From assembly GCA_943329075.2 (NCBI GenBank), contig CALQCM020000007.1, positions 1 through 32,000 of the forward strand: a stretch of DNA of 32,000 nucleotides, written 5' to 3'. The stretch is from Chitinophaga pinensis (GTDB taxonomy: Bacteria; Pseudomonadota; Gammaproteobacteria; Burkholderiales; SG8-41). Position 1 is the stretch's first letter; every line of letters begins with the position of its first letter. Below the pieces are notes generated by a model. That model was not told the origin of the DNA, made no database searches, and saw only the letters and a program-made list of their open reading frames with translations. Shown piece by piece: positions 7,969 through 27,803 of this stretch. Made by a program: the position numbers and the translations under genes.

Positions 7969-8282
7969 TTGCATCCGACAGACACTGCGACAACACGCGA
8001 CAAACGTGTTGTCGTAGGGTAGGCAAGCGTGGGTAGCTGAATACTGCAAGACTGCGCGATAACGCACGATCGCACGTCTGAGGTGTTTTACGCGATGCCC
8101 TGTACAGCGCCCACTATGTACAGCACGAATAAAAAACAAATCTTATTCGCAGAGTATTTGGTCTGGCGCGAATTGCTTGAAATCATTGAGGTCTTTTGCA
8201 GAGCCAGTTTCGGTCGTTTTTCTGAATCAAAGACAGCACAATAAATACACGACTATTGTTTGATTAACGGGAGAAACGACAA

Positions 8283-8849: not shown

Positions 8850-8870
8850 GTGTCGTTTTGAAAGACACTT
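8848..8870 (+). repeat. 23-nt hairpin element, copy 3 (exact, inverted relative to copies 1 and 2)
   Basis: aagtgtcgttttgaaagacactt is the exact reverse complement of 3879-3901. It begins inside the TAA stop (8847-8849) of the small recombinase gene. Confidence 0.8.
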
Positions 8871-8925
8871 ATGCACGGACTGCTGTGGAATCAGGCTAAA
8901 ACTTCGGTGTGGGAGTTTTGCTGCT

Positions 8926-8972
8926 GCAATCTTGTTGAGATTGCTGCAACCGTCCAGCAACGAGACGGTTGC
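8926..8972. terminator. two adjacent hairpins in the convergent gap between recombinase and AAA+ genes
   Basis: GCAATC-N7-GATTGC is at 8926-8944 and GCAACCGTC-N9-GACGGTTGC is at 8946-8972. Neither has a clear U-tail, so the terminator role is tentative. Confidence 0.3.
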
Positions 8973-8983
8973 ACTTCGAAACA

Positions 8984-9691
8984 TTATTTCTTTTTGCTGG
9001 GAACCACAGACAAGTGTGTTTGTGCAGACTTTGTAACAGTAGGCACAGGGGGCAGCGCCATTTCGTTACGAACCAAGTAGAGAATTTCATCCAGCTTGTT
9101 CATGTAATCGCGCAAGTCGCCTGTTGACTCCACCAGTTGCAACCAGTGCAGAACCTGCTGATCCGACAAATGAACGTCTTCGCCATGCAGAATTAATTGC
9201 GCTCTATTTAGAACTTGACGTGCGCCCAAAGCAGGGAAATTGATCAGGTCACAGCGCGAACGCAGACTTTTGTGAATGTTCATCGCATCGTTGGTCGTGA
9301 CAATCAACATGACTCTGTCCTGCACGGCATCAAGCGCTTTCCAAAAATTGGCGAAATCCCCTTTTAGGGTATCTAGTTCCTCCGCCACGATAAACAATTT
9401 CTCTCCTTCCTCAAGAAATATAACGGAGGTCGCGTTCTGTAAATAATTACGTAGATTTTTCATGCGTACGAGTTCTTCCATGTCTTTGTGTTCAATTCGT
9501 GCGTGTGCGCCGCCGATAGCCACTGGCAGTAAACGCGCCGCTGTACTTTTTCCAGTACCGTTCGGCCCCCAAAGCAAGATGTTTCCTTCAAGTGCCTTGT
9601 TTGCATAGGCGTCAATTCGGGTTTGCACAGCCAGGCTGGGGTAGATCACATCGCCAAGTGACTGGGGTGCGTATTTGATAGCGGTTTTCAT
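8984..9691 (-). CDS. clamp-loader (RFC/DnaX/HolB)-like AAA+ ATPase
   Basis: 235-aa ORF with AAGGAA upstream of the ATG. KYAPQSLGDVI resembles RFC box II. Walker A is GPNGTGKST, Walker B-like is FIVAEELD, and sensor 1 is IVTTND. The SRC motif in LRSRCDLINF is the hallmark arginine finger of clamp-loader subunits. Confidence 0.7.
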   Translation of the reverse strand: MKTAIKYAPQSLGDVIYPSLAVQTRIDAYANKALEGNILLWGPNGTGKSTAARLLPVAIGGAHARIEHKDMEELVRMKNLRNYLQNATSVIFLEEGEKLFIVAEELDTLKGDFANFWKALDAVQDRVMLIVTTNDAMNIHKSLRSRCDLINFPALGARQVLNRAQLILHGEDVHLSDQQVLHWLQLVESTGDLRDYMNKLDEILYLVRNEMALPPVPTVTKSAQTHLSVVPSKKK

Positions 9692-9763
9692 GTTGTGTGT
9701 TCCTTTGTGTAGTGGTTTTTTTTGTGTATGTCGAAAAGGGGAGTTGCCTCCCCCTTTCGGTCA

Positions 9764-10549
9764 TTAAGCTACTTTTGCGAAAACATCCGCATTGGCCGCC
9801 ATCCCCAACAAATCACTGGCCTCTTTGTTGAGCGCCTGATCTGCATCTTTTTGACCAGCGCGAACTTTTGCCATGCGTATCAGCAGTGCCTGAACGAGAG
9901 CTTCGTTGATGTCGGACAAAACACCCACAATAGAAACCATGCCGTCTGGTGCAGGTTTAGCCAGCAAAACAGCGTAATCCCCAGTGACGCCCGCCAGCGA
10001 CAGCGTTGCCAATGGAGTAATTGTCGCTAGTTCCACGTTCGCTTTGACTTCGCCAGTAGCCGAAACAATCGCAGCACGTTTCGCCTGTGCCGCTTCTGAC
10101 ACCACCATATCGCGTTTGATTTCTTCGATGCCGCCTTGTTCTGCGATGTAAGCGGGCAGATCGTTAGCGGTGATAGCTTTAGAAATCGCCGCTTTGAGCA
10201 CGTAGGCATAGCCATGCGCACGTTTGCGATCTGAGCTGAATACGAAACGCACGAACATCGTGAGTGTCGTCGTGTTGCTCTGCACTTTGACTCCATCCGC
10301 TGTAAGCCGCGCACAAAGCTCATTGCGCAGCGTCTTACGGCTGTTGCCATCAGCGTTTACGAACTTGGTTTGGAATACGTCCAAGCAGCCCGCAAGCAAC
10401 GCGTACAGCCCATCATTAGCTTTCTTGTAGTCAGTTATTTCCCACTGCTGACGACGCGCAGACAGAGCGTCCAGAGACTGGACGATGCCATTTGCAATAA
10501 TCATGTTGTCGTTCGACGGGGTAAAGGCGGTTTTGACAGATTTGCTCAT
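9764..10549 (-). CDS. hypothetical protein (261 aa), upstream partner of the AAA+ gene
   Basis: The ORF track starts at 10660, but GGAGA lies 7 nt upstream of the ATG at 10549 (MSKSVKTAFTPSND...). It is Ala-rich and predicted helical. No motif recognised. Confidence 0.6.
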   Translation of the reverse strand: MSKSVKTAFTPSNDNMIIANGIVQSLDALSARRQQWEITDYKKANDGLYALLAGCLDVFQTKFVNADGNSRKTLRNELCARLTADGVKVQSNTTTLTMFVRFVFSSDRKRAHGYAYVLKAAISKAITANDLPAYIAEQGGIEEIKRDMVVSEAAQAKRAAIVSATGEVKANVELATITPLATLSLAGVTGDYAVLLAKPAPDGMVSIVGVLSDINEALVQALLIRMAKVRAGQKDADQALNKEASDLLGMAANADVFAKVA

Positions 10550-10688
10550 TTTGATTCTCCGATTTAAAAGTCGGCGCGATGCTGGTGGCGGAATTGCCAG
10601 AAGTTGTATCGCGCTGACAATTAGGATTAGATCACCAAGAACTAATAAATCAGTCAACAACCAATAATCAGTTATTATCTGTAGACAT

Positions 10689-11624
10689 ATGGAAGAACAA
10701 TTGCTTCCGTGGTACCTCCGTAGCGCGGATTTCTACAAACCGAACTGGCACACACGGCCTACGATTGGCTTTGAGTTGCTGTTTGAGTTTTTGCGGCTCA
10801 GCCCTAGCTACGAACTGGCCCGCAAAGCCAGCATGGAAGGGCTAAGCACTGCTGACCAGCTACTATTGCCGCCAGATTTTGAGCAGGTAAAAAACACCTA
10901 TCAGCTCTTGGGCGATGTGCAAAAAATCTTGTTTCGGCAATGGTGGATCGCAAGAGGACTCAGCACCTTTGGCAATCCCTACGCACGCCCAAAATTGCAC
11001 TCAGTCGCACATCTGGCAGGTGGGAAAGATATTTCGGCTGAAACCCTCGTAGGTAACTTCGAAAGTTACCTAGCTGGAGCGCGTCATGAGGAAGGGCTAG
11101 TCGATAGCGTGCTCATCGCAGTCCCTTTGGGCCTACGTCAATCAGAAATCCGCAAACAGATGTCCGCTATTCTTACTGCCTATTCAGGCCATGAGCAAAA
11201 CTCACGGCAAAGTCCATTGATAAAATTGCAAGGCAAGCGGCTGCGATCAAAGGTGCTGTTCAATGGCCTACGACTGCTTTGGTTTAAAGCTGCAAAACCC
11301 CAATGGGAACACTGGCGGCTGGGTGCTAAATCAAGATTCAGCGTCACCTATTCCAAAGAACTCAATCCTGCCAATCCCCGTAGAGTGGTCAGCACGCTGG
11401 AATCGTACGATAGAGAGATGATGACAAAAATCACCAATCGCGCGCTGAAGAAATTCGAATCCATTGCGGAGAACGCAGCAAGAGGGCGATTCCCTTCGCA
11501 AGACCCAGTCCATCCAGTAGATTTTCAGTATCCGTTTCTTGCCAAACGAATACAGCGCAAAAACACATGGGAACAAGAGGAGAAAGCACGGTTACTGGCG
11601 GCATTCCGCAGCCGTCGGCATTAG
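10689..11624 (+). CDS. hypothetical protein (311 aa)
   Basis: Long ORF divergent from 9764..10549 and convergent with the integrase. Trp/Arg-rich, no recognised motif, weak Shine-Dalgarno sequence. Confidence 0.55.
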   Translation: MEEQLLPWYLRSADFYKPNWHTRPTIGFELLFEFLRLSPSYELARKASMEGLSTADQLLLPPDFEQVKNTYQLLGDVQKILFRQWWIARGLSTFGNPYARPKLHSVAHLAGGKDISAETLVGNFESYLAGARHEEGLVDSVLIAVPLGLRQSEIRKQMSAILTAYSGHEQNSRQSPLIKLQGKRLRSKVLFNGLRLLWFKAAKPQWEHWRLGAKSRFSVTYSKELNPANPRRVVSTLESYDREMMTKITNRALKKFESIAENAARGRFPSQDPVHPVDFQYPFLAKRIQRKNTWEQEEKARLLAAFRSRRH

Positions 11625-11771
11625 TGCAAGACCGTCCCGTTGCTGGACGCTTGCTGAACGTAACAGCACAGCACGACCCAGCCCACTCACGTATTCGACC
11701 CGATTCCACCGTCGGTTCGGCGGTGATTTTCACCAAGTACAGCGACAGAGGCTGTCGTCCAACTCCGAAAC

Positions 11772-13040
11772 TCAGGCTTTCTTCCGCTTCTTAGAGGGTT
11801 TCAATGACTGCAGTTGTGCCACGTTCATTTCGTTCTGGTAATGACTGCCGTAGAAACGGGTGATCATTTCTGCGCTAGTTCTGGCATTTTGCGCCAACGT
11901 ATTCCAGTCGATGTTGTCGCCCTTAGTAATCCGAAACATGATTGCTGTGTGACGCAAGCTGTACAACGTCCGTACCGTGCCTTTTGCATCCAGTCGCAAA
12001 TCAGTCACGTCCAGCAAGTGGTAAAACAGCCGCACCAGCTGTACGTAAGCGTAGTCTCTGTTGCGATGCTCTGGCATAAACACGTAATCGTCGTCTTTAG
12101 CCAATTCCCGTTCAGCTTGATATTGCTGTTGCCGTTCATACACTTTAACGGCGACGGGCATACTGATGATGGGCTTGTTGTGCTTTTTCGTGGTGGGCGG
12201 TGACAAACGCAAATACGTGTTGTCCTTTCGCACCACTGCCACATGCGAATGCTTCAGCGTCTTAATATCCGACGGCCGCACGTAGGTGTTGACCATAAAC
12301 AAGATCAAGTTATGCAATTCTTGCGTAAACCGCATCCGCCGCTTTGCCTTACCTTGCTGATTACGGACTACGATCTCAGTGCCGATCAATGCCTTTGCGT
12401 TGCTTTGAAGCTTGGTATATTCCCAGCTATTAAAATAACCACGCGGGTCATCTTCCAAAGTGATGGTGGGAAATGCGGGCAGATGCGGGATGATTTGCTT
12501 GCGGTGGGCGTGCTTTAACACCTTACGTAGCAGTGATTCGTGTAGCTTCAGTGTTGCGACCTTCAGTCCTTTTTCCGTCAGTGTATTTAAGTAAGTCTCT
12601 ATAACCGTGTAGTCAATCTGACCCACATCGTATGCGCGGAAATACGGCAGCATGTGTACACGCAGACGGCTTTGTTCGTTGACGTTGAGACTGGCGCTGA
12701 GTTCACCGCGCTTAATACGCGATTCTTGTAACTTCAGCATCTCTTTCGCGCACACTTCAAAGCGCGATGTCTTGCCAATCATCAAACCACCCGTTTTACG
12801 CACCAGTAGTTCTTCGTAAAACGCGATCGCTGCCTTAAACGCTTCTTGCGTCTGGTCAGTCTTAGTAGTGCGCTTAAATATTCTGCCGCTGTCGTAGTAG
12901 CGTGCCCAATAGAAAGGCGACGCGGGAATGCGGAAGATGGTTAACTTGGAGGGGTATTTGGGGACGGATTGAATCGTAGCGGGAATCGGCACAGTTTTGT
13001 GCCGCCCGATTACCAAAGCTTTTTTGGGCTTCGTTTCCAC
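11772..13040 (-). CDS. tyrosine-type site-specific integrase (422 aa)
   Basis: GTG start at 13040, 54 nt from the tRNA 3' end. Catalytic elements: R in YVRPSDIK, LRHTAI (the second Arg), and the Tyr in ITRFYGSH. The long N-terminal region is consistent with arm and core-binding domains. Confidence 0.85.
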   Translation of the reverse strand: METKPKKALVIGRHKTVPIPATIQSVPKYPSKLTIFRIPASPFYWARYYDSGRIFKRTTKTDQTQEAFKAAIAFYEELLVRKTGGLMIGKTSRFEVCAKEMLKLQESRIKRGELSASLNVNEQSRLRVHMLPYFRAYDVGQIDYTVIETYLNTLTEKGLKVATLKLHESLLRKVLKHAHRKQIIPHLPAFPTITLEDDPRGYFNSWEYTKLQSNAKALIGTEIVVRNQQGKAKRRMRFTQELHNLILFMVNTYVRPSDIKTLKHSHVAVVRKDNTYLRLSPPTTKKHNKPIISMPVAVKVYERQQQYQAERELAKDDDYVFMPEHRNRDYAYVQLVRLFYHLLDVTDLRLDAKGTVRTLYSLRHTAIMFRITKGDNIDWNTLAQNARTSAEMITRFYGSHYQNEMNVAQLQSLKPSKKRKKA

Positions 13041-13044
13041 GTTA

Positions 13045-13068
13045 GTAGTATAGCGCCAACTATACTAC
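13045..13068. repeat. inverted pair of GTAGTATAG 9-mers (candidate integrase binding sites, tRNA-proximal end)
   Basis: GTAGTATAG (13045-13053), then cgccaa, then CTATACTAC (13060-13068). It lies between the integrase start and the tRNA. The same 9-mer is found twice at 3736-3756. Confidence 0.6.
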
Positions 13069-13093
13069 TGTCAAAACGTAACTACTTGATTTT

Positions 13094-13169
13094 TGGTGCC
13101 GCTGGCCGGAATCGAACTGGCGACCTTCGCATTACGAATGCGCTGCTCTACCAACTGAGCTACAGCGGC
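13094..13169 (-). tRNA. tRNA-Thr (anticodon CGT)
   Basis: The reverse complement is GCCGCTGTAGCTCAGTTGGTAGAGCAGCGCATTCGTAATGCGAAGGTCGCCAGTTCGATTCCGGCCAGCGGCACCA. It has a 7-bp acceptor stem, a GCTC/GAGC D-stem, anticodon loop TTCGTAA, T-loop TTCGATT and an encoded CCA. Positions 10-48 (D-arm, anticodon arm and variable loop) are identical to my recollection of E. coli thrW. One A52-C62 mismatch in the T-stem is present in both att copies. Confidence 0.9.
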
Positions 13170-16340: not shown

Positions 16341-16715
16341 CTAATTGGATGACTTGTTATTGTTGACGGGCATGTTGGCGAGCTGCTGCGTGAGGAAAGT
16401 GCTGGTCGAGTTGAGCCGGCTGATCATCGTATCGAGCGCGGTGAACTGCGCGCGGTAACGCGCTTCGGTCGCGGTCAGCTGGCGGTTGATCCTGGCACGC
16501 TGGGCGCTGATGTCGGTCAGGCTGTTGTTGATGCCGGTGCTGCGTCCGGCCAGTGCGCTGCCGTCGGCGAGTGCGCTGGCGGCGAGTTTATTGAGCAATG
16601 TCGCGTAGCCGCCGGAAAAACCCAGCGTGCCGTCGACGCCGGAAACGACCTGTGCCGGCGTGCCCGTGTATTTGATCTGCAGGCCCTCACCGGCGGTACC
16701 GGTCGCACCGGTCAC
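16341..16715 (-). pseudogene. fliD: 3' fragment of flagellar filament cap gene fliD
   Basis: ...GRSTGINNSLTDISAQRARINRQLTATEARYRAQFTALDTMISRLNSTSTFLTQQLANM matches the conserved FliD C-terminal region. Only about 124 codons are present. The upstream end abuts the truncated GGDEF ORF at ~16711. Confidence 0.7.
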
Positions 16716-17976
16716 CGCCGAAACGCGCCACGCTGTCGCCGGGGCGCACGGTTTCGCGGATCACCTGGGCGAGAAGGGTCAGCGCATCGTCGCCGACGGC
16801 GTGGCCGAAGTTGTCGTTCAGTTCCTTGAAATTATCGACGTCGAGCAGCGCCAGCGAGAGACGGTGGTGTTTGCGTTCAGTCGCCGCGATTTCGCGCGAG
16901 AAGGCGTCGTTGAGGCCGCGCCGGTTAAGCGTGCCGGTGAGGCTGTCGATGCGCACCTGTTCACTGGCCTGCGCGAGCTCCGCTTCGAGATCGGCAACCT
17001 TGCGTTCGGCGGCATCGACCTGCTGGCGCGCGTTCAGCACTTCCGCGCGCGCGCGCAGCGTGCTGGCCTGCACGTCGCGGGTTTCGCGCAGCACGTCACC
17101 GAGCAGGCGGTTGAGTTGGTCCACATCGTCAGTCTGGCGGATCTGCTGGGCCAGATTCTCCACGGTGTCGTGATAGTCGCCGGTGGCCGCCGACAGATTG
17201 CCGAGCTGGTCGATGAACGAGCCGATCATCTGTTTCATGGTCGCCTTGACCTCGCCCAGCCCGCGTTTGAGCAGCGACTGGCGCACGATCAGGTCGGAGA
17301 GTCCGGTCTTGGCGGCTTCGATCGCCGCCATGTCGAGCGGACTCGAGATGGCGCGCAGCACTGCCGAAATCTGGCCGCGCAACCATTGGTCGTCAGCAAC
17401 GAGTTCGCCGACGTTTTCGATCAGCAGTTGCAGCAGTTCGAGCAGGCCGGTCTGCAGCTTGTTGCACGTGTTGCCGTACTGTTCGATGCGCCGCCACAGA
17501 AAATTCAGCTGTTCGCGCAGCGCCGTCACGTCGATGGCGCTGCCGTTGCGCAGTTTTTGCGCAATCGCATTGGCTTCGGCGGCCAGGCCCGGCGCGTCGA
17601 GCAGGCGCGCGCGCACGCTGATTTCCAGCGTTTGCGCCAGCAGTTCGCACAGTTCGGCCGGCGGTTGCGGCATGGTGGTTGTCGGGCGCGGCGCCTGGCG
17701 CTGCAGCGTCGAAGTGCCCTCGGCCACCTTGCCCGGGTCGGCGATCACCTCGCGGATGAGCTTGTGTGCGACAAATAATTTAAGCGCGTTATAGACCGTC
17801 GCCTTCGACGTCTCGGTGGCGCGGTCATTAGCCAGCGCGAGTACGCGGTCGGCCGACACATGCGTGTGGCGCGACAGAATCGCATGGGCGATCTCGATGC
17901 GCTGGTGCGTCGGGCTGATGCCGTGTTCGCGCAACAGCGCGGGCAGGCTTTCGCGTGTGTAGGTTTTATGTTCCAT
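16687..17976 (-). pseudogene. chimeric, truncated ORF: Fur-family wHTH fragment plus coiled-coil plus GGDEF domain cut inside the GGDEF motif
   Basis: aa 1-84 (LREHGISPTHQRIEIAHAIL...SKATVYNALKLFVAHKLIREVIADPGKV) form a Fur/Irr-type N-terminal DNA-binding domain without the metal-binding half. An internal Met at 17673 (MPQPPAELCELL) begins a long helical region. The GGDEF domain follows (RIDSLTGTLNRRGL, LLDVDNFKELNDNFGHAVGDDAL) and ends at ARFGGD plus 7 out-of-context codons and a stop. Confidence 0.65.
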
Positions 17977-18310: not shown

Positions 18311-18790
18311 ATGCAACGTTCGTCCGGCTTTACCTTGATCGAACTGATGATTACCGTGGCCATCGTGAGCATTCTGGTTGCCGTCGGATTGCCGTCTTAT
18401 CAGGCGCACATGATCAAAGCGGTGCGCTCCCAGGGCCAGCAGTTTCTGCTGGACCTGGCGCAGCGCGAGGAACAATACTTTCTTGATGCACGCTGGTATG
18501 CGTCTGGCATCGCCGCATCATCAACGGCGGGCATGATGACCATCTCCGTTCCCGACACCGTGGCCGCCAAGTACGACGCCCCCGTGTTTACCGTGCCGGC
18601 GCAGGCCGCCGGTGTGGCGCCGACCTTCGTCATCGCCCTGCCGCCGAAAGCCGGCGGCACTGTCACCGCCGACGGCAGACTGCTCATCAACAATCTGGGG
18701 CAGCGCTGGCGCGAAGTTGATAACAACGATGCCTATGACAGCGCAAAAGATTGCACCTGGGAAAAAAGCACGTGCACGCCAACGCCATAA
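18311..18790 (+). CDS. pilE: type IV pilus minor pilin PilE-like
   Basis: AGGAG lies upstream of the ATG. It has the prepilin N-terminus MQRSSGFTLIELMITVAIVSILVAVGLPSYQ (G/F cleavage-methylation motif, E5). Confidence 0.8.
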   Translation: MQRSSGFTLIELMITVAIVSILVAVGLPSYQAHMIKAVRSQGQQFLLDLAQREEQYFLDARWYASGIAASSTAGMMTISVPDTVAAKYDAPVFTVPAQAAGVAPTFVIALPPKAGGTVTADGRLLINNLGQRWREVDNNDAYDSAKDCTWEKSTCTPTP

Positions 18791-18801
18791 CTTTCGCCGC
18801 C

Positions 18802-19395
18802 ATGCGGCGCGGCAACGCGCGCGGGTTCACCCTGCTCGAGTTGATGATCGTGCTGGTGATCATCGGCATCATGACAACCATCGCGTTACCGCCGATGGTC
18901 GATTTTGTCGCCGAGCAGCGTGTGCGCACGGTCGCCTCTGACATGGTGTCGGAAATCGCGTTTGCGCGTGCCAAAGCGGTTGAATCGGGGCGCCGCGTCA
19001 TCATGGAGCGTCTCAGTGCCAGCGGCTGGGATCTCGGCTGGCGCACCTATATCGACGTCAACGGCAACGGCAGCTATGACGCCGGCGCCGATACCGAGAT
19101 CAAGCAGTTCAACGGCTTCGGCACCGGCGCGGCCGCTGCGACGGGGCGGCTTTACGTCTGCAGCAACACGGCGGATTTCGCCACCCGCATTATCTTCCGG
19201 CCGGATGGCCGCGTCGTGCGTTCTGCGACCGCGACCACCGTCAACGACGGCCTCTATGTGGTCGACCCGATGGGCGACAGCGATATTTGCAACAACAAGA
19301 CACGCGCGGTGCTGTTTGATCTGTCCGGCCGCGTCAACAGCCGCATCATCACCAGTACCGTTGCCGGCTGCAAGGGAGTAACGCCGCCATGCTGA
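18802..19395 (+). CDS. fimT: GspH/FimT-family minor pilin
   Basis: The start was moved to the ATG at 18802 (MRRGNARGFTLLELMIVLVIIGIMTTIALP). The body has GspH-like features (ARAKAVESGRRV..., GWDLGWRTYIDVNGNG). Assignment as FimT rather than FimU is not resolvable by eye. Confidence 0.7.
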   Translation: MRRGNARGFTLLELMIVLVIIGIMTTIALPPMVDFVAEQRVRTVASDMVSEIAFARAKAVESGRRVIMERLSASGWDLGWRTYIDVNGNGSYDAGADTEIKQFNGFGTGAAAATGRLYVCSNTADFATRIIFRPDGRVVRSATATTVNDGLYVVDPMGDSDICNNKTRAVLFDLSGRVNSRIITSTVAGCKGVTPPC

Positions 19396-20045
19396 ACCAG
19401 CGCGGATTTACACTGATTGAAGTGCTGGTCACCCTGGTGATTCTGCTGTTCGGCCTGCTCGGCATCGCCGGCCTCATGGCCAAAGGCCAGCGCGTGGCCT
19501 TCGAGGCTTTGCAGCGCCAGCAGGCACTGGCACTGGCGGCCGACATGTCGGAGCGCATCCTCGGCAATCGTTCGCAGGCCGCCGGTTATGCCACCGCCGC
19601 GCCGCTGGCGACGCCCGCCGGCGCCGGCTACGGCCTTTATTATGCCGATTTGCTGAAAAACAACATTACGAACTGCGCGACCGGCAATTGCACGAATCTC
19701 GAACTGCAACGCTATGACGTAGCGATGTGGGAGGGCCTGTTGCTCGGTTATACCGAACGGCTGGCGGTCGGCGGCACCATCATCGGCGGCATCGTCAACG
19801 CCAACGGCTGCATTGTGCAACTGGCCACAACATCGGCGAACTGCCCGGCCGCGCCCGCTGCTGTGGGCAGCCTGTTTACGCGCACACTCAGAATCAGCGT
19901 GGTCTGGCAGGGTAACGAAGACACGGTGGACCCGAGTCTGGTCGCCGGCAATGCCAACATGACCTGTGGCACGGGCCTTTACCGGTCGGCCACCAGCCGG
20001 CGCATCATTTCGACCGATGTCAATGTCCTGGAGTCATGCCCATGA
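19389..20045 (+). CDS. pilV: type IV pilus minor pilin PilV
   Basis: MLNQRGFTLIEVLVTLVILLFGLLGIAGL is a typical PilV N-terminus. The start overlaps the fimT stop. Confidence 0.8.
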   Translation: MLNQRGFTLIEVLVTLVILLFGLLGIAGLMAKGQRVAFEALQRQQALALAADMSERILGNRSQAAGYATAAPLATPAGAGYGLYYADLLKNNITNCATGNCTNLELQRYDVAMWEGLLLGYTERLAVGGTIIGGIVNANGCIVQLATTSANCPAAPAAVGSLFTRTLRISVVWQGNEDTVDPSLVAGNANMTCGTGLYRSATSRRIISTDVNVLESCP

Positions 20046-21187
20046 TTCGCTCGCATCTGCACAAGGCATGGCAGGCGGGTTTGTCGCTGATCGAGTTGAT
20101 GGTGGGACTGACCATCGGCCTGTTTCTGACATTGGGCATGTTCGTGCTGATCACGAATTCTTCAAGCGCTTTCAAGGTGCAGGATGACTTCGCGCGCATG
20201 CAGGAAAATGCCACTTCGGCGATGCGTTACATCGGCAGTTCTTTGCGCATGGCCGGCTTTTACGGTTACGCGCAGGACGCGAGCGTGATTAACACGACCT
20301 TCGGCGCGGTCAGCACAACCACCGACTGCGGCTCCGCCACCAATACACCATTAAGCAATTGGGCGATCGACCTGCGTTTTTCGGTGTTCGGTCTGCAGGG
20401 CTTGACACAATCGGACATCAATACGACGGTGCCGTGCGTCGCTGTGGCGAATTTTCTTGAAATTACCGGCGGACAGCAGATTCTGGTGACGCGGGGCGCG
20501 CTCGGCACGCGTGTCGCGGATCCCAACGCAGACGGCAATCTGGCCGATGGTCTGGCCGCCATGCGCAATTACACGACGACTATTTTTGTGCAGGCCGATC
20601 CCGGCGAAGGTCTGATTTTCTACGGTAATGATTTCACCACGCTCAAGGGCGCGGCGCGCACACGCACGCTGCCAAACGGAAACGACATCGATATTTTTGA
20701 ATTTGCGGCACATGTCTATTACATCCGTCCGTGCAGCCGCTTTGCAGCGGGCGCCACCGCGTGCACTGCCGCGGCCGACGACGGCAGGCCGATTCCAACG
20801 CTGGTCCGCCAGGAACTCTCAGGCAGCGCGATGACCGAGGTTGCGCTGGCAGAGGGCATCGAGCGCATGAATCTGCTCTACGGCATCGACAACGTTCCGG
20901 CAGGCGCCCCCGACGGCGTTGCCGACACGTTCACCACCACACCGGCGGCAGCTGACTGGCAGAACGTGGTATCGGTCAGGGTGACATTGCTGGTGCGTTC
21001 GAACACACTGACCGCCCAATATGACGACGGCGCAAAAACCTACGATCTCGACGGCGACAACGCGATCACTGCAGCCGACTATAACTGCACGACCGACGTC
21101 GCCACGCCGTCAGCCTGCCGGTACAAACGCAAAGTCTTTTCGCAGCTGGTACAGCTGCGCAACATTGCCCAACGGAGGGGCCTGTGA
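20042..21187 (+). CDS. pilW: type IV pilus assembly protein PilW
   Basis: GLSLIELMVGLTIGLFLTLGMF...MQENATSAMRYIGSSLRMAGF is a PilW signature. The ATG at 20042 overlaps the pilV TGA (ATGA) and has GGAG 9 nt upstream. The ORF-track start at 20036 is an alternative. Confidence 0.8.
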   Translation: MIRSHLHKAWQAGLSLIELMVGLTIGLFLTLGMFVLITNSSSAFKVQDDFARMQENATSAMRYIGSSLRMAGFYGYAQDASVINTTFGAVSTTTDCGSATNTPLSNWAIDLRFSVFGLQGLTQSDINTTVPCVAVANFLEITGGQQILVTRGALGTRVADPNADGNLADGLAAMRNYTTTIFVQADPGEGLIFYGNDFTTLKGAARTRTLPNGNDIDIFEFAAHVYYIRPCSRFAAGATACTAAADDGRPIPTLVRQELSGSAMTEVALAEGIERMNLLYGIDNVPAGAPDGVADTFTTTPAAADWQNVVSVRVTLLVRSNTLTAQYDDGAKTYDLDGDNAITAADYNCTTDVATPSACRYKRKVFSQLVQLRNIAQRRGL

Positions 21188-21681
21188 TGCCCGTTTATAT
21201 CCAATCGCGCCAGCGTGGCGCCGTGCTCATCGTCAGCCTGATCATGCTCGCGGTGATGTCCTTGTTCGTGGTTTCCATGCTGAGAACCTCGATCCTCGAA
21301 CTCAAGATCGGCGGCGCCAGCCACGTTTTCCAGCTCAATTTTTCGAACGCCGAATACGCCATCAACAAATGGATCAACGATAACAACGGTCGCCTTGCGC
21401 CGAATTTTCTGGCGATCACACCCGTGCTGAGCGCCGGCTGCAATGTCACCACCACCGGCTCCGCCCAGTGCACCGATCCGCCAACTGTCTACGGCGGCAC
21501 GGTTGCCCTGGCGCCCACGCAGATCCACTGCGGCCCGTGGGCGCAGTTCGGCAACATGATGGGATCGATGCAGCTCTCGGCGGTGCAATTCGACATCCGC
21601 GCCACCGCCACCGGCACGCTGGGCGGCACCACCGTCGTGCACCAGGGCGCACAGTCACTGGCACCACCCGGCACCTGTTAA
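21187..21681 (+). CDS. pilX: type IV pilus minor pilin PilX
   Basis: RGAVLIVSLIMLAVMSLFVVSMLRTSILELKIGG is a PilX N-terminal domain pattern. The ATG at 21187 overlaps the pilW TGA and has GGAGG 8 nt upstream. The GTG at 21184 is an alternative start. Confidence 0.75.
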   Translation: MPVYIQSRQRGAVLIVSLIMLAVMSLFVVSMLRTSILELKIGGASHVFQLNFSNAEYAINKWINDNNGRLAPNFLAITPVLSAGCNVTTTGSAQCTDPPTVYGGTVALAPTQIHCGPWAQFGNMMGSMQLSAVQFDIRATATGTLGGTTVVHQGAQSLAPPGTC

Positions 21682-21734
21682 AGCATTTGCAAACCATTGG
21701 TAGCTCCACCGGTAATCCGTCACAACTCAGCCAA

Positions 21735-24700
21735 ATGAGGTCTGTCGTGAAAAAACGAAATCTTTTTTCAAAATCCATTGCCTGGTTGCTCATTACGACG
21801 CTGGTCAATCCGGCGTTGATGGCGCCTGCGTTTTCGCGCGACACGGATATTTTCCTCTCGACCACCACCGGATCAACCACCGCCGAGCCGAACATCATGA
21901 TCGTGCTCGACACCTCGGATTCCATGAATCTCCCGGAGGCGTGGCGGGAGTACTCCGGCACCTACGATTCGCACATTGAATACCTGTGGAACGATATCAA
22001 CGTCATCAGCAGCACCGAGCAAACCACCGAATCGGGGACCAAAATTTCCACCGCCGACGCCACTTCGGTGGCCCACCCGGTCAGCCCTTACGGCTTCTGG
22101 GCGGGTGCAACGCTGGCCGACCGGCGCGCCATCTGGAACGCGGCCAGAATCTACGCCAATGCCACCCAGGGCGGCGACCCCGGAGCGCGTTCGACCTGGC
22201 GCAATTACAGCGAGGGTTCGCCGAGTTACCCGGCGCTCTCAAATTACTATTGGCTGCCGGCTGGCACCAGCGATTCCGATCCACTCCTGCGCTCACCGTC
22301 ATTCAACCGCTTCCGCGGCTATCAAAGCAGTATCACCGGCACCCGCGGCGGCCTGATATTTCCGGGAACCACCGACTACAGCAGCCTCAACGCCTGCTCT
22401 GCTTCTCAAGGATCATTGATAGCGTCGACGGTATTTCGCCCGAGCGCGACACCGCGCAATGCGGGGGTCTATCCGAATGACCAGTGGTTCCGCTGGGAGC
22501 CCTATGCGGTGCTGGACGCGCAGAATGTCGCCGTGTATCCCGGCAGCCAGACCGTGACCAATGGCTATATTCAGGGTTATCTCGACTCGTCGATTTTGCC
22601 GCCCGGCTCATGGAGTCCGTTGCCGGCCAGCCGGCCGGCCCGTGACAACACCGGCGGCACCAACGCCTCCAGCCAGGGCCAGCCGATCCGCCTGCGTAAC
22701 GCCGTGAACAGCGGTGCGACCTGGCGTAATGTCGCTGCCGATCTCGGCGGTTACGAATTTCAAAGTTACGTAAACGGCCTGAGCGGATCAATTTTGCAAA
22801 GTCTGCGCGGCACCTATGCTTACACACTGCTCGCGGCAGTCGGCGCGGCTGGCACCGTTCCTGCAGAACGCTTCAGCGCCTGGCTCGGCAATCGCGATGC
22901 CTTGCCCAATTTTGAGAAAAGCACCGGCACGCCGGCCTATTACGATGCGACCTCTTCGCCACTGACGGCCTGTGACCCTTTGACCGGCCCAGGCAGCGGG
23001 ACTTGCATCAACGTCACCACCGGCGGATCAGCGAATATTACGTTGACGAAAACGCGTGCCTGCACCTATAACGCCGGCCTCACCGAACTCGATGCAAGCG
23101 GCACAACGCGGCGCTACAACGGCACCTGCACTGGCGCCGCCGTCGTTAATGTGTGCGGTGTCGATATCACCTGCAGCGGCGATACGAACGGCGTGGCTTA
23201 TCCCAACTACAGCGACGTGGCAAATCCGGCCCCCTGCACCGCCACCACGGTCAAACAGAATACATTCATCAACATCAATTATCAGAGCTGCGCATGGTCG
23301 CCCGCGCGCTCCAGCGTCGCGGTCGCCGCCTGCGCCTGGTCGGCGGCACGCACCTCGGTGTATGTCGAGGGCCAGGGCTATTATTACTATGGCGGCACCT
23401 GTACCGAGAACAGCAGCACCAGCAGCTGCACCGCCGGCGGCAGCACCCTGACAGTCAACAGTGTGTCGCGCCCCAATGTGATGGGCCCCTACACCACCGA
23501 CACCGCGGGCAACAAGGCCCTCGGCTGCACCAACGCGCTGGCAGCCGGCACCTATTATTACGGCAGCACCTGCCAGGGCAACAATGTCAACGTCGGCACC
23601 ACACTGCGCGGCGGCACGCCGCCCGGGTCACCGTTACCGGGAGCCACCGGCCCGGCAACCGCCAATTGCACGATCAGCGGCACCACAGCATCGCAAACAA
23701 TACGCGGCACGGCCTATGCCAATACCGTTCTGAACAATGCCACCAACGGTTGCAATAACAACGCCCAGAACAATCAGACTTGTTCCGTACGCGGAGGCTA
23801 CGGCGGCGTGCAATGCGATAACCCGACGGCAGCGACCGCCTGCCCGGCCGTGCAGACCAGCCTCACCGGCGGCGGCACTTCGGCAACCAATAACTATTAT
23901 CTCGTCGCCAACCAAAGTGCCACCACCACCAATCTGGTACACGATTGCAAAGCCGATGCCCCGGCCGCGAACGGCGGCGCCTACATGCGCGGCGGCACGC
24001 TCAGAACCTTCGCCACGGCATACAACACCACCAATACGGATGCCAGCGCCACGGCATCCTATACGACCGTCGCCGGCAACTCCGTCAATTACGACAGCGA
24101 CAAAAACATCGATGTCTATTCGGTCAATTACCTGAACTGGAAATTCGGGCCGAAAGGGCCGAACGGCGATCCGATCGGGCGCAAGACCCGTCTGCAAATT
24201 GCCAAAGATGCATTGAGCGGCCTGGTGCAGAACACCGACGGCATCCGCTTCGGACTGACGGTTTTCAACAAAACAGCGTCCTGCAGCGCAACCACCGGCA
24301 GCATCACCGCGGGCACCAACCAGTTGACGGTGGACGATGCCACGCAATTCACGGTCGGCGACCCCATTTCCATCGGCGGCGCAAACGCAACCGGCGCGGT
24401 CCTGAACTCGGTGGTGACCGCCGTCTCAGGCACCACCTACACGATCGCGACCAGCACCACCAATCTCACCACGACCGGCAATATGACCGCCGGCAGCCAT
24501 TCTCTCACCGCCGTCGGCACCGTCACCGGTTATGCCATCGGTCAATCGATCAAGGTCGCCGGCGCCGGTGTTGCGGGAGCGGACCTGGTGGTAAACATCA
24601 CTAACATTTCGGGTTCGACATTCACCCTCGGTGGCGCCACTGCCGGCACGACGGTGGCGGGTGCCGTGGTGTCAATCGCAGCAGGCACTACCGTTAGCGG

Positions 24701-27700
24701 AGCATTGGTACAACGCAACCCTTGCACCGGTTCGGGCAACAACGAGGGCGCGAACGTCGCCTACGGCGTCAAGCGCATGGGCAGCAATGCGAGCGATACC
24801 CCCGATTACAACAACCGCTCGGGACTGATCACCGCCATCAACAACGTCGTGGCGCAGGCACGCACGCCGCTGACTGAATCGGTGTATGAGGCCTACCGCT
24901 ACTTCAGCGGCCGCACGCCGAAATTCGGCACCTCCAATGTTCCGGCATCCGTCGGCACGGTGAGTGCGGGACGCGATACGTCGGTCATCTGCACATCCGC
25001 AGCCGCCGGATCCGGCTGTACCGCAATCGGCGCCTACAAATCGCCGATGCTGAACAATCCGAACACAACTTCACCGGCCGGCTGTCAGAAGAACTTTATT
25101 GTGCTGCTGACCGACGGTGGCCCGGAGGACGATTGGAGCGCAAACGCCGACATCAAGAGCATGAGCTGGAGCGGGCCGCTGGGCGTCATAGCGCCACGCA
25201 CCGGGATCGACGCCACACAGGGCGACACCACCACCGATCAGATCGAAGCCTCGGCCAATACGCCTTTCGGCCCGCAGGATATTGCCAGCACGGCGTTTGA
25301 CAACGGCTATATCTGGCTCGACGAACTGGTTTACTTCATGGGCAATGCCGATATCAGCCCGCGCGCCCGCAACTTCACCACGGACAGCGGCACCGACACC
25401 ATCGCCGGCCGCCAGTCGGTCAATACCTACACGATCGGCTTTGCAGGGGCGAATTCACCCGTTCTGCAAAACGCGGCACTGCGCGGCAACGGCGTCTACT
25501 ACACCGCCGACAACAGCGCGGCGCTTTCTGCGGCACTTCTGGCAGCGCTGGCGGCGATCGTCAACTGGAACCCGACCGTCGCAGCGCCTACCGTGCCGAT
25601 CTCGGCGCTGAACCGCTCGGAAAATGCGACTGATGTTTATCTCGCGTTCTTCCAGCCCGACCCGTCTTCAGCATGGCTGGGAACGGTCAAGAAGTTCCAG
25701 TTGAGCCAGTACCCGAACAACGGCGATGCGGCAATTTGCGGCGCCGGCGTCGGACTGTGCCTGATCGGGCAAACCTCTTTGACCAAATCGGCACCAAACC
25801 CGTCGCCGACCCGCAATATTGAAACCGTGGTCGTCGACACCATCACCGGCATCAGTCAATCACAGGTCGACATCAACGCCTCGAGCTTCTGGGCGCCGTC
25901 GTCGGTAACCGATGGCAGCCATCCGGACCAGGGCGGCAGCGGCTACCAATTGGTGAACAACACCTCGACGCTGACGCCGAATACCCGCAATGTCTACACC
26001 TTCCTGACCAACGCTGCAGCCCTGCAGAACGGCAACTCCGGGAGCGTGGTTGATCTGACCAATACCGCCAACAAGGTGCACTTCAGCAATGCTTCGAATA
26101 TTTCGAAGTGCCGGCTTGGCGATGTCGCGGCGTGCGGCGGAACCGCGACCATGACCGCCGCCCAGCAGGAAACGCTGATTAACTGGATACGCGGCGGCGA
26201 CACGGCAACCACTGCCAATTGTAGCGACGGCACGTCGTCGACCTGCACGACCTGGCGTACCTGGCCGCATGCCGACGTGCAGCACTCGAAACCGGCAATC
26301 GTGACTTACCAGGCAAGCACGCCAATCATCCAATACATGTATTACGTGCAGAACAACGGCCTGCTGACCGCCATTGACACCGCGACCGGTATTGAAAAAT
26401 GGTCGTTCATGATCGAGGAGGCGCTGCCGAAGATCTCAAGCATGACGGCTGACGCCGCCGGGCAGCAGATCGACGTCGCCGACGGCACACCGACCATCTA
26501 TGTGGAGGACGTCAACGGTGACGGCAACATCACCGGCACCGACAAAGTATGGCTGTACTTCGGCCTGCGCCGCGGCGGTCGCGTATATTATGCGATTGAC
26601 ATTACACAACCAGACAGCCCGCAATTCGGCTGGAAGATCGATGCCAATTCGACCCCGGCGAAGATTTGCCTGGGGAATGGCGTTTGCTCCAACGCGTCGC
26701 AATACAATGAACTGGGGCAAACCTGGTCAAACCCGTTCGTTGGCAAAGTCCGCGCCAACACCAGTCCGGTGCTGATCTTTGGCGGCGGCTATGACGCTGC
26801 CGAGGACACGCTGCCACCGGGCGCACGCACGATGGGTCGCGCGATTTTTGTGGTTGATGCATTCACCGGAAGTCTGGTGCAGTCCTGGGGCACCGGGCAA
26901 GCGGGCACTTTCCTCGGCAGCGGCGCGGCATCGATGATTTATCCGATCCCGTCGGACGTCACGGCGCTGAATACCGACCTTGACTCCCAGGGCTTCCTTG
27001 ACCGCCTGTATGTCGGCGACACCTGGGGCAACGTCTGGCGCTTCGACGTCGACGATGCGAGCGTAAGCAATTGGCGCGGCAAATTGCTGGCAACCCTGTC
27101 GAGCGACATCTCGACGGGCGAACGGCGCAAGATTTTGTTCCAGCCGGCCGTGGTGAAACAAAATTCGCCCTTCCGCTTCGATGCGGTTTATGTCGGCACG
27201 GGTGATCGCGAACACCCGCTCTGCCTGACCGCGAATCAGGTAACGCCAACCGTCATGTCGAACTCATGCTCATTGTTCGCGCCCGCCAACAAGATGTTCA
27301 TGGTGATCGATCCCGATTACGGCCTGAGCGCAAGCAATACCTCTCCGGTCCTGGTCTCCGACCTGTCGCAGCGGCTGACCACCGACCTGGTCACCAATAC
27401 CTCGAATACCATCCTCAATACCAGAAAGGGCTGGTACCGCGATTACGACAACGGCGAAAAGAGTGCGAATGCACCGACCGTCTTCAGCCAGCGTCTGCGC
27501 TTCGGCACTTACGCCCCGCTTGGCCAAAGCAACGGCGCCTGCGTGCCGCCGGGCGAAGGCCGGCTGAATGAAATCGACGCCATCACCGGCGATCTGGTGC
27601 CCATCAACGGTTCGGTCACGCAGGCTTCGGACCGCTACTACTCGACGTTTATCACACACGGCTACATATCCACCGGCCAGTTGATCGTGCAAGGCAAGAA

Positions 27701-27803
27701 CATTTACCACATCGTGGTGTCCGACTCGCGGCTGCAGTCGGTGCTGGTCGGCAGCATGGGATCAGCGACCAAGATTTACTGGTACATGGAACCCGAACAA
27801 TAA
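21735..27803 (+). CDS. pilY1: giant PilY1-family pilus tip adhesin, ~2020 aa (VWA domain with large insertions plus C-terminal PilY1/PilC beta-propeller)
   Basis: The start is the ATG at 21735, or the GTG at 21747 with GAGG 6 nt upstream. Signal peptide: KKRNLFSKSIAWLLITTLVNPALMAPAFS. MIDAS motif: IMIVLDTSDSM (~21909). Later VWA segments are YSVNYLNWKFG...IRFGLTVFN (~24120-24270), NFIVLLTDGGPEDD (~25090-25130) and NTYTIGFAG. Propeller motifs are DVNGDGNITGTD (~26510) and TDLDSQGFLDRLYVGDTWGNVWRFD (~26975-27050). The 89 codons upstream in the ORF track overlap pilX and are not coding. Confidence 0.85.
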   Translation: MRSVVKKRNLFSKSIAWLLITTLVNPALMAPAFSRDTDIFLSTTTGSTTAEPNIMIVLDTSDSMNLPEAWREYSGTYDSHIEYLWNDINVISSTEQTTESGTKISTADATSVAHPVSPYGFWAGATLADRRAIWNAARIYANATQGGDPGARSTWRNYSEGSPSYPALSNYYWLPAGTSDSDPLLRSPSFNRFRGYQSSITGTRGGLIFPGTTDYSSLNACSASQGSLIASTVFRPSATPRNAGVYPNDQWFRWEPYAVLDAQNVAVYPGSQTVTNGYIQGYLDSSILPPGSWSPLPASRPARDNTGGTNASSQGQPIRLRNAVNSGATWRNVAADLGGYEFQSYVNGLSGSILQSLRGTYAYTLLAAVGAAGTVPAERFSAWLGNRDALPNFEKSTGTPAYYDATSSPLTACDPLTGPGSGTCINVTTGGSANITLTKTRACTYNAGLTELDASGTTRRYNGTCTGAAVVNVCGVDITCSGDTNGVAYPNYSDVANPAPCTATTVKQNTFININYQSCAWSPARSSVAVAACAWSAARTSVYVEGQGYYYYGGTCTENSSTSSCTAGGSTLTVNSVSRPNVMGPYTTDTAGNKALGCTNALAAGTYYYGSTCQGNNVNVGTTLRGGTPPGSPLPGATGPATANCTISGTTASQTIRGTAYANTVLNNATNGCNNNAQNNQTCSVRGGYGGVQCDNPTAATACPAVQTSLTGGGTSATNNYYLVANQSATTTNLVHDCKADAPAANGGAYMRGGTLRTFATAYNTTNTDASATASYTTVAGNSVNYDSDKNIDVYSVNYLNWKFGPKGPNGDPIGRKTRLQIAKDALSGLVQNTDGIRFGLTVFNKTASCSATTGSITAGTNQLTVDDATQFTVGDPISIGGANATGAVLNSVVTAVSGTTYTIATSTTNLTTTGNMTAGSHSLTAVGTVTGYAIGQSIKVAGAGVAGADLVVNITNISGSTFTLGGATAGTTVAGAVVSIAAGTTVSGALVQRNPCTGSGNNEGANVAYGVKRMGSNASDTPDYNNRSGLITAINNVVAQARTPLTESVYEAYRYFSGRTPKFGTSNVPASVGTVSAGRDTSVICTSAAAGSGCTAIGAYKSPMLNNPNTTSPAGCQKNFIVLLTDGGPEDDWSANADIKSMSWSGPLGVIAPRTGIDATQGDTTTDQIEASANTPFGPQDIASTAFDNGYIWLDELVYFMGNADISPRARNFTTDSGTDTIAGRQSVNTYTIGFAGANSPVLQNAALRGNGVYYTADNSAALSAALLAALAAIVNWNPTVAAPTVPISALNRSENATDVYLAFFQPDPSSAWLGTVKKFQLSQYPNNGDAAICGAGVGLCLIGQTSLTKSAPNPSPTRNIETVVVDTITGISQSQVDINASSFWAPSSVTDGSHPDQGGSGYQLVNNTSTLTPNTRNVYTFLTNAAALQNGNSGSVVDLTNTANKVHFSNASNISKCRLGDVAACGGTATMTAAQQETLINWIRGGDTATTANCSDGTSSTCTTWRTWPHADVQHSKPAIVTYQASTPIIQYMYYVQNNGLLTAIDTATGIEKWSFMIEEALPKISSMTADAAGQQIDVADGTPTIYVEDVNGDGNITGTDKVWLYFGLRRGGRVYYAIDITQPDSPQFGWKIDANSTPAKICLGNGVCSNASQYNELGQTWSNPFVGKVRANTSPVLIFGGGYDAAEDTLPPGARTMGRAIFVVDAFTGSLVQSWGTGQAGTFLGSGAASMIYPIPSDVTALNTDLDSQGFLDRLYVGDTWGNVWRFDVDDASVSNWRGKLLATLSSDISTGERRKILFQPAVVKQNSPFRFDAVYVGTGDREHPLCLTANQVTPTVMSNSCSLFAPANKMFMVIDPDYGLSASNTSPVLVSDLSQRLTTDLVTNTSNTILNTRKGWYRDYDNGEKSANAPTVFSQRLRFGTYAPLGQSNGACVPPGEGRLNEIDAITGDLVPINGSVTQASDRYYSTFITHGYISTGQLIVQGKNIYHIVVSDSRLQSVLVGSMGSATKIYWYMEPEQ

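Follow-up and report, generated by a model that had tools for sequence, protein, structure and literature searches.

The first 32,000 nucleotides (nt) of contig CALQCM020000007.1 from GenBank assembly GCA_943329075.2 (hereafter the window) carry a minor-pilin operon whose last gene is a giant pilY1 (Table 1). The gene is real and intact, and it encodes a PilY1 protein of about twice the usual size. Residues are numbered throughout from ATG 21735. The N-terminal VWA domain of the protein is predicted to be split by two inserts around a complete MIDAS (metal ion-dependent adhesion site). The gene order pilin-fimU-pilV-pilW-pilX-pilY1, all on one strand, is kept in most of the 56 related loci with neighbour matches. 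The pilin gene lies upstream of the giant pilY1 in 41 of these loci, and genes for PilW and PilX are each found in 53. Downstream on the opposite strand are ispH, lspA, ileS and ribF, of which ispH and ileS are conserved at this place in most related loci. The PAO1 pil operon presumably also lies beside ispH-lspA-ileS-ribF.

Table 1. Positions of the giant pilY1 gene, its predicted parts and the minor-pilin genes in the window. AF2, AlphaFold2; ORF, open reading frame; aa, amino acids; pLDDT, predicted local distance difference test.
Feature	Residues	Nucleotides	Strand	Basis or remark
Giant pilY1		21735..27803	+	Single ORF; 2022 aa counted from ATG 21735
Sec-type signal peptide	1-34	21735..21836	+	By eye: KKR n-region, IAWLLITTLV h-region, APAFS/RD
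VWA strand beta1 and MIDAS DxSxS (D59-T-S61-D-S63)		21891..21923	+	AF2 strand at residues 53-58, pLDDT 84-95
Insert 1, lobe A	64-420	21924..22994	+	Mixed alpha/beta, better conserved; AF2 pLDDT mostly 80-97
Insert 1, lobe B	421-794	22995..24116	+	Beta-rich and Cys-rich; 19 of the 20 insert cysteines
VWA helix alpha1 and strand beta2 (YSVNYLNWKFG ... RLQIAKDALSGLV ... IRFGLTVF)		24117..24284	+	AF2
Insert 2	851-1000	24285..24734	+	On the beta2-beta3 hairpin; 150 aa, two ~50-aa all-beta repeats
VWA remainder, beta3 to alpha6		24735..25604	+	MIDAS Thr1044 (RTPLTE) and Asp1127 (LLTDGG)
VWA element beta1	53-58			AF2 secondary structure
VWA element alpha1	819-833			AF2 secondary structure
VWA element beta2	838-844			AF2 secondary structure
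VWA element beta3	1006-1014			AF2 secondary structure; alpha2 and alpha3 next
VWA element beta4	1120-1126			AF2 secondary structure; alpha4 next
VWA element beta5	1229-1235			AF2 secondary structure; alpha5 next
Linker and C-terminal PilY1 beta-propeller		25605..27800	+	PF05567; 3HX6; hhalign
EF-hand-like loop DVNGDGNITGTD	1592-1603	26508..26543	+	Within the propeller part
Pilin gene (N_methyl and ComP_DUS-like), first of the minor-pilin operon		18311..18790	+	Pfam PF07963, PF16732; called on the source contig
FimU/FimT-like (GspH family) minor pilin		18772..19395	+	Pfam GspH and N_methyl; TIGR01708 sub-threshold; source-contig gene call
PilV minor pilin		19389..20045	+	TIGR02523 type_IV_pilV, 59.9 bits (cut-off 52.2)
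PilW minor pilin		20036..21187	+	Pfam PF16074 PilW, E 1.2e-23
PilX minor pilin		21184..21681	+	Pfam PF14341 PilX_N, 27 bits (gathering score 25.5)

The C-terminal part ties the protein to PilY1. Scanned alone, residues 1250-2022 match PF05567 with 31.2 bits (gathering score 28.1). The C-terminal segment matches the structure of Pseudomonas aeruginosa PilY1 (3HX6) with E 1.7e-5 as a single sequence and with E 2.9e-16 over 420 positions when the family profile is used. An hhalign comparison of the family with the homologue P0080 aligned the propeller at a probability of 100% and reported an alignment for the propeller only. The full-length protein had no match in Pfam, NCBIfam or PDB (phmmer). 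Since the segment scans recovered both PF05567 and 3HX6, these earlier nulls are due to scanning the protein at full length. The calcium site of the P. aeruginosa protein has the pattern D851-x-N-x-D-x-V-x-D859, and the loop aligned to it reads DLDSQGFLD (residues 1748-1756, nt 26976-27002). Of the five positions that align with this site in 3HX6, one has Q in place of Asp; D1748, D1750 and D1756 are each kept in 66-76 of 79 family members. Several family proteins already carry the label PilY1 or PilC/PilY family from the Joint Genome Institute (JGI) and NCBI. By its sequence, the protein is thus classed as a PilY1 encoded together with type IVa minor pilins.

The operon is adjoined upstream by a divergent gene with a FUR domain and a GGDEF domain (16687-17976, -), which is recognisable at the same place in 15 related loci. 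Further upstream of it lie an HDOD/Ser-Thr kinase gene and a response-regulator gene. The GGDEF-domain neighbour may link the pilin operon to signalling by cyclic di-GMP (c-di-GMP).

An uninterrupted ORF (21468-27803, +) spans pilY1. Listed from GTG 21468, it takes in about 90 codons that are non-coding and run over the pilX end. The true start is likely GTG 21747, giving 2018 aa, rather than ATG 21735, because of a GAGG 6 nt upstream, the family N-terminal consensus MxxxxxFxKxxAW and the annotation of the source contig (ENA ERZ28593093 scaffold_660, 65.5 kb), on which the identical 2018-aa protein is called (P0001). An earlier reading of this DNA from its letters and ORFs (hereafter the sequence-only reading) had placed the end of the feature at 25450, which falls inside the VWA domain; the gene continues to 27803. 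A size of this kind could be the product of mis-assembly, of two genes fused by a sequencing error or of translated low-complexity DNA, and the region is indeed rich in GC and in Thr/Ser/Gly/Asn, with Pfam and NCBIfam scans of the whole protein empty. However, the pilY1 gene holds no DNA-level repeat longer than 33 nt, so that assembly collapse is unlikely, and collinear full-length homologues occur in many independent assemblies, including finished genomes (NC_013194, AP021857). The AF2 models are confident, and the cysteines are conserved across the family. We reject an assembly artefact as effectively refuted by the independent homologues and the lack of long repeats, and give the artefact explanation as a whole next to no credence.

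The N-terminal half is predicted to hold a single VWA domain in three pieces. In an AF2 model of residues 49-1248 (35-sequence alignment, mean pLDDT 79.3, predicted template modelling score (pTM) 0.64), the order of the secondary-structure elements is that of a VWA domain, and the last beta-alpha unit lies beyond the 1200-aa model. The dispersed VWA motifs quoted in the sequence-only reading are all present, each no more than a few bases from the position given there: IMIVLDTSDSM at residue 54 (nt 21894), YSVNYLNWKFG at 795 (nt 24117), IRFGLTVFN at 837 (nt 24243) and NFIVLLTDGG at 1120 (nt 25092). The alpha1-beta2 block is the best conserved stretch of the N-terminal half (identity 0.71), and the remainder of the domain contains two smaller loop expansions at residues ~1058-1119 and 1128-1194. 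All five MIDAS residues are present (D59, S61, S63, T1044 and D1127).

Profile searches point in the same direction. Deleting both inserts in silico raises the VWA_2 (PF13519) score from 13.3 to 25.0 bits (gathering score 27) and gives 23.7 bits for VWA (PF00092), whose gathering score is 23.8; the insert-free sequence matches positions 1-49 of the VWA/VWA_2 profiles across the artificial junction. Neither the native segments (E 0.026-0.029) nor the insert-free sequence reach a Pfam VWA/VWA_2 score above the gathering score. The VWA remainder matches Pfam VWA at profile positions 129-169 (E 0.029), and weak VWA_2 matches from profile position 17 are found at the alpha1 block of the window protein and four homologues. 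A precomputed PF13519 match exists for the homologues P0009 and P0014, and the family profile matches the VWFA protein 9e5c in PDB with E 0.012.

Co-variation of the MIDAS residues also fits a split domain. Among 79 members, 69 have the set DSSTD and nine have GNRTN. Four of the five residues (59, 61, 63 and 1127) are replaced jointly in those nine, which means that residues more than 1000 positions apart were lost together. The MIDAS-replaced subgroup comprises the clusters P0028, P0030, P0032, P0035-P0038, P0040 and P0041, all of which keep insert 1 and are variants of this architecture with a dead metal site. Together, motifs, model and profiles suggest an N-terminal VWA domain that is split by two inserts and has a complete MIDAS.

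The site of insert 1 appears to have been enlarged more than once. P0086, a homologue of canonical size (1233 aa), has about 110 residues at this site, both ends of which align to the ends of insert 1, and there are none in P0080 and P0082. Expansion has thus recurred in the beta1-alpha1 loop. P0080-P0084 (1619-1696 aa) are long PilY1 proteins in which alpha1 follows directly after the MIDAS loop. They lack insert 1 and have some 670 additional residues inserted after the VWA domain and before the propeller, showing that PilY1 has been enlarged elsewhere in other lineages.

Insert 1 comprises 731 aa (residues 65-795, or 64-794 by the order of elements in the AF2 model) between the beta1/MIDAS DxSxS and helix alpha1, in good agreement with the ~720-residue Cys-rich interruption proposed from the letters. 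Modelled alone with the same 35-sequence alignment, it reaches a mean pLDDT of 83.9 and a pTM of 0.64, and its occupancy across the family is 0.64-1.0. For lobe A, occupancy is 0.86-1.0 and identity 0.37-0.68. This lobe opens with a near-invariant motif, MNxPExWREYxGxYDSHxEYLWND, whose pLDDT is below 50 when modelled without the VWA core and 85-95 with it. That the motif is ordered only in the presence of the core agrees with the split-VWA reading. Model and alignment together argue that insert 1 is a folded, conserved module.

The cysteines of insert 1 behave as pairs. Their number is exactly 20, where about 20 had been counted by eye, and it is even in 79 of 79 members (range 14-52). Twelve of the 20 are conserved at >=96%, and variable cysteines co-vary in pairs (413/424 phi 0.97, 519/613 phi 0.95 and 598/645 phi 0.69). 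This pattern fits disulfide bonding in an exported protein. The abundance of N-x-S/T motifs stressed by the sequence-only reading carries no meaning, as the 13 sequons compare with 12.9 +/- 3.1 expected from composition.

Both repeat pairs picked out in that reading are real. CAWSPARSSV/CAWSAARTSV belongs to a ~13-aa unit, CxWSxxRxSV, with two copies here (residues 519-546) and about nine in P0043. GYYYYGGTC/GTYYYGSTC belongs to a ~46-aa unit, CxNx5YxYGGxCxExGSx3Cx4Gx3TIxGxxY, with two copies here (residues 545-672; z=4.1 in Smith-Waterman comparison with shuffles) and one to ten copies per homologue, as counted with a hidden Markov model built from P0043. BLAST self-comparison of the inserts showed no internal repeat; the repeats were found by Smith-Waterman alignment with shuffling controls. 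A profile of the ~46-aa Cys repeat found no match in a set of 5.8 billion proteins, an uninformative search in which 99 candidates were scored and the source protein was also missed.

Insert 1 resembles no family in the libraries searched. It has no match in Pfam even at E 10, nor in NCBIfam (whole protein), PHROGs or a PDB sequence-profile search, and its best Foldseek matches have E 0.85 (PDB) and 0.43 (BFVD). The view that it stands outside the known adhesin families therefore holds in all of these libraries. An exhaustive phmmer search of 1.84 billion representative proteins returned 63 relatives. In the long ones (~1700-2370 aa), the match begins near the N-terminus, mostly at residues 60-85, which is the same site, and the remaining relatives are shorter sequences. 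Outside the betaproteobacterial family, no relative was detected among the 1.84 billion representatives, and insert 1 thus appears to be confined to this PilY1 family.

Insert 2 was implied by the spacing of motifs in the sequence-only reading and left undescribed there; it is a discrete module with an internal repeat (z=6.6, Smith-Waterman against shuffles) and 12 strands in the AF2 model. Cys850 and Cys997 bracket it and co-occur with a phi of 0.72. Only about one quarter of the family has insert 2, and 1785-aa forms lack it cleanly. Foldseek matches to phage depolymerases and tailspikes (7vul, E 4.6e-4; 6e0v, 8bke and 9k4a at a probability of ~1) and to a region of ubiquitin E1 containing the FCCH barrel appear only when the insert 2 region is in the model. 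All these matches probably belong to insert 2; those to depolymerases cover ~100-190 columns at a low TM-score (~0.1). This module has no match in PHROGs, and searched alone it returned two marginal 222-aa matches.

The same likeness raises the question of an enzyme at the pilus tip, for example with insert 1 as a polysaccharide-degrading or -modifying domain. The near-invariant residues E72, D78, H80, E82, W70, W85, Y77 and Y83 that follow the MIDAS motif would suit such a function, as would the resemblance of insert 2 to phage depolymerase modules. Yet no catalytic family matches by sequence (Pfam, PDB profile search) or fold (Foldseek with PDB and BFVD), and the depolymerase matches most likely concern accessory beta modules rather than the catalytic beta-helices. 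We regard an enzymatic insert 1 as highly improbable.

PilY1 proteins of this size are common among relatives. A first protein search gave 86 matches, 78 of which share the architecture (some of them partial); the full-length ones have 1779-2388 aa. In GTDB, sampled at one genome for each species, 61 loci came to light, whose complete ORFs measure 1726-2231 aa. These include the finished genome of Candidatus Accumulibacter phosphatis (NC_013194, 1857 aa) and Candidatus Desulfobacillus denitrificans (AP021857, 1830 aa). Further carriers are Candidatus Dechloromonas phosphorivorans, Sterolibacterium and many metagenome-assembled genomes (MAGs) of Rhodocyclaceae and Burkholderiales. A PilY1 of 1726-2388 aa with the same insert at the same site is the rule in Rhodocyclaceae and related Betaproteobacteria, a group from freshwater and wastewater. 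The size, which had seemed exceptional from the window alone, is routine in this clade, as the 78 clusters and 61 loci attest. In the literature on PilY1 with Accumulibacter or other Rhodocyclaceae we found no description of the family.

Some of the carriers have more than one copy. A second PilV/PilW/PilX set lies just downstream of the giant pilY1 in some MAGs (L037, 1161-9252; L038, 4410-15890), and the MAGs JAIENF01 and JBIITW01 contribute two giant-pilY1 loci each. Sterolibacterium nzgw567 has two longer matches and a short fragment. The second sets and duplicate loci are paralogous tip complexes, as in Myxococcus. In three species genomes (L022, L036 and L051) the ORF stops after 296-598 aa. 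The tblastn similarity continues over query residues 1-1200 in L036 and L051 and to residue 538 in L022, and these short ORFs are frameshifts or pseudogenes. L051 is contig tig00000952 of Ca. Dechloromonas phosphorivorans, apparently from a long-read assembly. Five loci (L013, L023, L014, L046 and L056) show the betaproteobacterial pilin/ispH/ileS synteny under titles such as Bordetella parapertussis, Streptomyces and Bifidobacteriaceae. Probably the submitted MAGs were given the wrong taxon or the contigs were mis-binned.

Insert 1 evolves separately from the rest of the protein. When 75 full-length homologues are compared with the window protein, the identity of their C-terminal 730 residues shows no correlation with that of insert 1 (Spearman rho -0.05, p=0.70) and a clear one with that of the VWA core (rho 0.73). 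Local identity to the window protein was computed over stretches of 60 residues. For P0002 and P0003 it is 70-95% at residues 1-60 and from residue ~1020 on, and 12-47% over most of insert 1 (residues 121-780). Relatives with so low an identity in the insert reach 80-95% in the propeller. P0018 shows the reverse, with 53-72% through most of insert 1 and 28-57% in most of the C-terminal half. The switch points fall at the insert boundaries. Either PilY1 lineages swap the head through recombination, or its divergence is several times as fast as that of the chassis, and in both cases the sequences portray insert 1 as an evolutionary module of its own.

An arms race could drive such diversity if the inserts were a variable shield or decoy that covers the conserved VWA domain and propeller from tip-binding phages or grazers. 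Divergence is confined to the exposed modules on a conserved chassis, copy number varies, and the likeness of insert 2 to beta modules in the tailspikes and depolymerases of phages is a hint that genes have been exchanged with them. However, lobe A is well conserved, unlike pure immune-type variation, and no phage is known for these uncultured hosts. The probable likeness of insert 2 to phage proteins is also weak (best E 4.6e-4, TM-score ~0.1). A shielding role therefore seems doubtful to us.

We lean towards a pilus-tip adhesin in which the VWA scaffold carries an exchangeable, disulfide-locked binding head, and think it somewhat more probable than the alternatives combined. In such an adhesin, PilY1 would be exported by the Sec pathway and its C-terminal propeller would join the minor pilins encoded upstream (FimU-like, PilV, PilW and PilX), which would put PilY1 at the distal end of the pilus. 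A distal location has been shown for PilY1 of other species. The VWA domain would keep its complete MIDAS and have two loops turned into large appendages, namely insert 1 as a two-lobed module with ten predicted disulfides on the loop after DxSxS, and insert 2 as a tandem beta module on the beta2-beta3 hairpin. Both insertion sites are predicted to be on the same face of the VWA fold as the MIDAS, which would make the inserts the outermost surface of the tip. There they may serve as a head that binds the substrate and determines what the pilus attaches to, and the disulfides would keep this head folded under retraction force. The head would be an exchangeable cassette whose repeat number varies and which diverges or recombines independently of the conserved chassis. 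The idea of a novel binding module in the sequence-only reading is plausible as far as a binding role at the tip is concerned; host binding is unsupported, because the carriers are environmental and wastewater bacteria.

Several points weigh against the adhesin. We infer the tip location, the orientation of the inserts, the disulfide bonding and the ligand-binding role, and both the placement of the inserts with respect to the MIDAS and the disulfide geometry rest on prediction. In Pfam, Foldseek (PDB and BFVD) and PHROGs, the inserts match no family of lectins, adhesins or carbohydrate-binding proteins. The VWA identity rests on motifs, the order of secondary-structure elements, sub-threshold Pfam scores and residue co-variation, and Foldseek with the model of residues 49-1248 returned no VWA structure among the 50 matches listed, probably because the fold is cut in three by inserts of 731 and 150 aa. 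The nine members without a MIDAS site keep insert 1, and binding by the insert thus need not involve the metal site. The statistic for cysteine co-variation is uncorrected for phylogeny, and what looks like cassette exchange could be due to extremely fast local evolution instead of recombination.

The main rival is a largely mechanical insert 1, that is, a disulfide-clamped, extensible or force-bearing element that adjusts the transmission or sensing of tension at the tip. P. aeruginosa PilY1 (~120 kDa) has a ~26-kDa vWA domain with a MIDAS and seven cysteines implicated in force-dependent signalling, and in the published model the vWA cysteines govern a force-induced conformational change and c-di-GMP signalling (PMC9210963). 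The even number and strong conservation of the insert cysteines would suit this role. A varying number of tandem Cys repeats would alter contour length, and the GGDEF-domain gene directly upstream of the operon, here and in 15 related loci, could belong to such a circuit. However, a pure spacer is not expected to outpace the divergence of the chassis several times or to be swapped among lineages, lobe A is non-repetitive, and the near-invariant aromatic/acidic motif beside the MIDAS looks more like a site than a spring. A mainly mechanical insert strikes us as rather unlikely, and the binding and mechanical roles are not mutually exclusive.

Within the adhesin reading, a more specific proposal can be put forward, tentatively and as a possibility only. 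Insert 1 might represent one or two undescribed folds and act as a disulfide-locked, copy-number-variable tool head at the tip, exchangeable by recombination, that sets the attachment of Betaproteobacteria of the Accumulibacter type and their relatives, for example to specific extracellular polymeric substances (EPS) or cell-surface glycans of flocs and granules.

The closest well-studied relative is P. aeruginosa PilY1 (PA4554; 3HX6), which shares a homologous propeller, a VWA domain with a MIDAS and the fimU-pilVWX-pilY1 operon. The vWA domain is enriched in cysteines in both proteins (PMC9210963). Unlike P. aeruginosa PilY1, the present protein has ~2020 aa and a VWA region of ~1240 aa, which holds 25 cysteines because of its two large inserts. 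Also unlike in P. aeruginosa, no pilY2 or pilE gene follows pilY1 here.

Earlier papers describe insertions in the VWA domain of PilY1/ComC (PMC10374093) and extended PilY1 clades that are rich in cysteine (PMC13190605), and the present family is the same design taken much further. Iruegas et al. described differing lineage-specific vWFa insertions in Acinetobacter ComC and other PilY1 proteins (PMC10374093). Deletion of the ~110-aa finger of ComC (residues 156-266) impaired adhesion, twitching and DNA uptake (PMC10374093). Acinetobacter baumannii ComC has in common with the present family a conserved tip VWA scaffold with lineage-specific insertions and cassette-like replacement among strains (PMC10374093). 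Its finger is ~110 aa long and Tyr-rich, whereas insert 1 has 731 aa, two lobes and 20 cysteines, a comparison made by description.

Myxobacterial PilY1 proteins have interchangeable N-terminal modules (PMC9109919). In Myxococcota, clades 1.5-1.7 consist of extended vWFA-PilY1 proteins with a median of 30-41 cysteines and 5-20 predicted disulfides (PMC13190605). Myxococcus xanthus PilY1.3 and clades 1.5-1.7 share with the present family a great length, an N-terminal vWFA domain and many cysteines (PMC13190605, PMC9109919). Several paralogues per genome are a further common trait, and adhesion specificity is proposed to depend on the N-terminal part. The Myxococcota proteins belong to a different phylum, and the phmmer search of 1.84 billion representatives detected no relative of insert 1 outside the betaproteobacterial family.

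Analogous designs occur in unrelated systems. In the pilus-tip VWA domain of RrgA/GBS104, two inserted arms, in which the domain varies most, are proposed to form a cradle for the ligand (PMC7893114). RrgA/GBS104 likewise combines a MIDAS with two insertions that extend from the core, but it belongs to a sortase-assembled, unrelated pilus and its arms are small hairpin or loop elements; the likeness is one of analogy, not homology. Insert 2 occupies the hairpin equivalent to the specificity-determining loop of the integrin beta I-like domain. There, the insertion in the beta2-beta3 hairpin contributes to ligand specificity. The integrin loop is eukaryotic, much shorter and without sequence relation to insert 2.

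The window also carries a ~9.4-kb genomic island (3642-13169) integrated at a tRNA-Thr(CGT) gene (13094-13169, -). The 46-nt 3' half of the tRNA gene is repeated at 3642-3687 with 93% identity to 13094-13139, forming direct repeats that resemble attachment (att) sites. The island encodes an integrase (11772-13040, -), a short second integrase (8283-8849, +) and an AAA/clamp-loader-like protein (8984-9691, -), and its GC content is 38-51%, compared with ~62% elsewhere in the window. Positions 1-3641, on the far side of the distal att-like repeat, have a GC content of 39-48% and ORFs without a Pfam or PHROG match, and this region may be a second, older tandem island.

PilY1 is the part of the pilus that first touches the surroundings. 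The ~880 extra residues in the two inserts show how far the VWA scaffold can be elaborated, and nothing known of PilY1 is overturned by them. Having no detectable relative outside its PilY1 family in any sequence or structure library searched, insert 1 is a good target for structure determination and possibly a new fold. The carriers Ca. Accumulibacter and Ca. Dechloromonas phosphorivorans are key organisms of biological phosphorus removal, a process in which aggregation into flocs and granules matters practically. If the insert does set attachment specificity, it would offer a concrete molecular handle on this aggregation, and as a tool head it would determine, in a lineage-specific way, how cells aggregate in communities of wastewater and freshwater.

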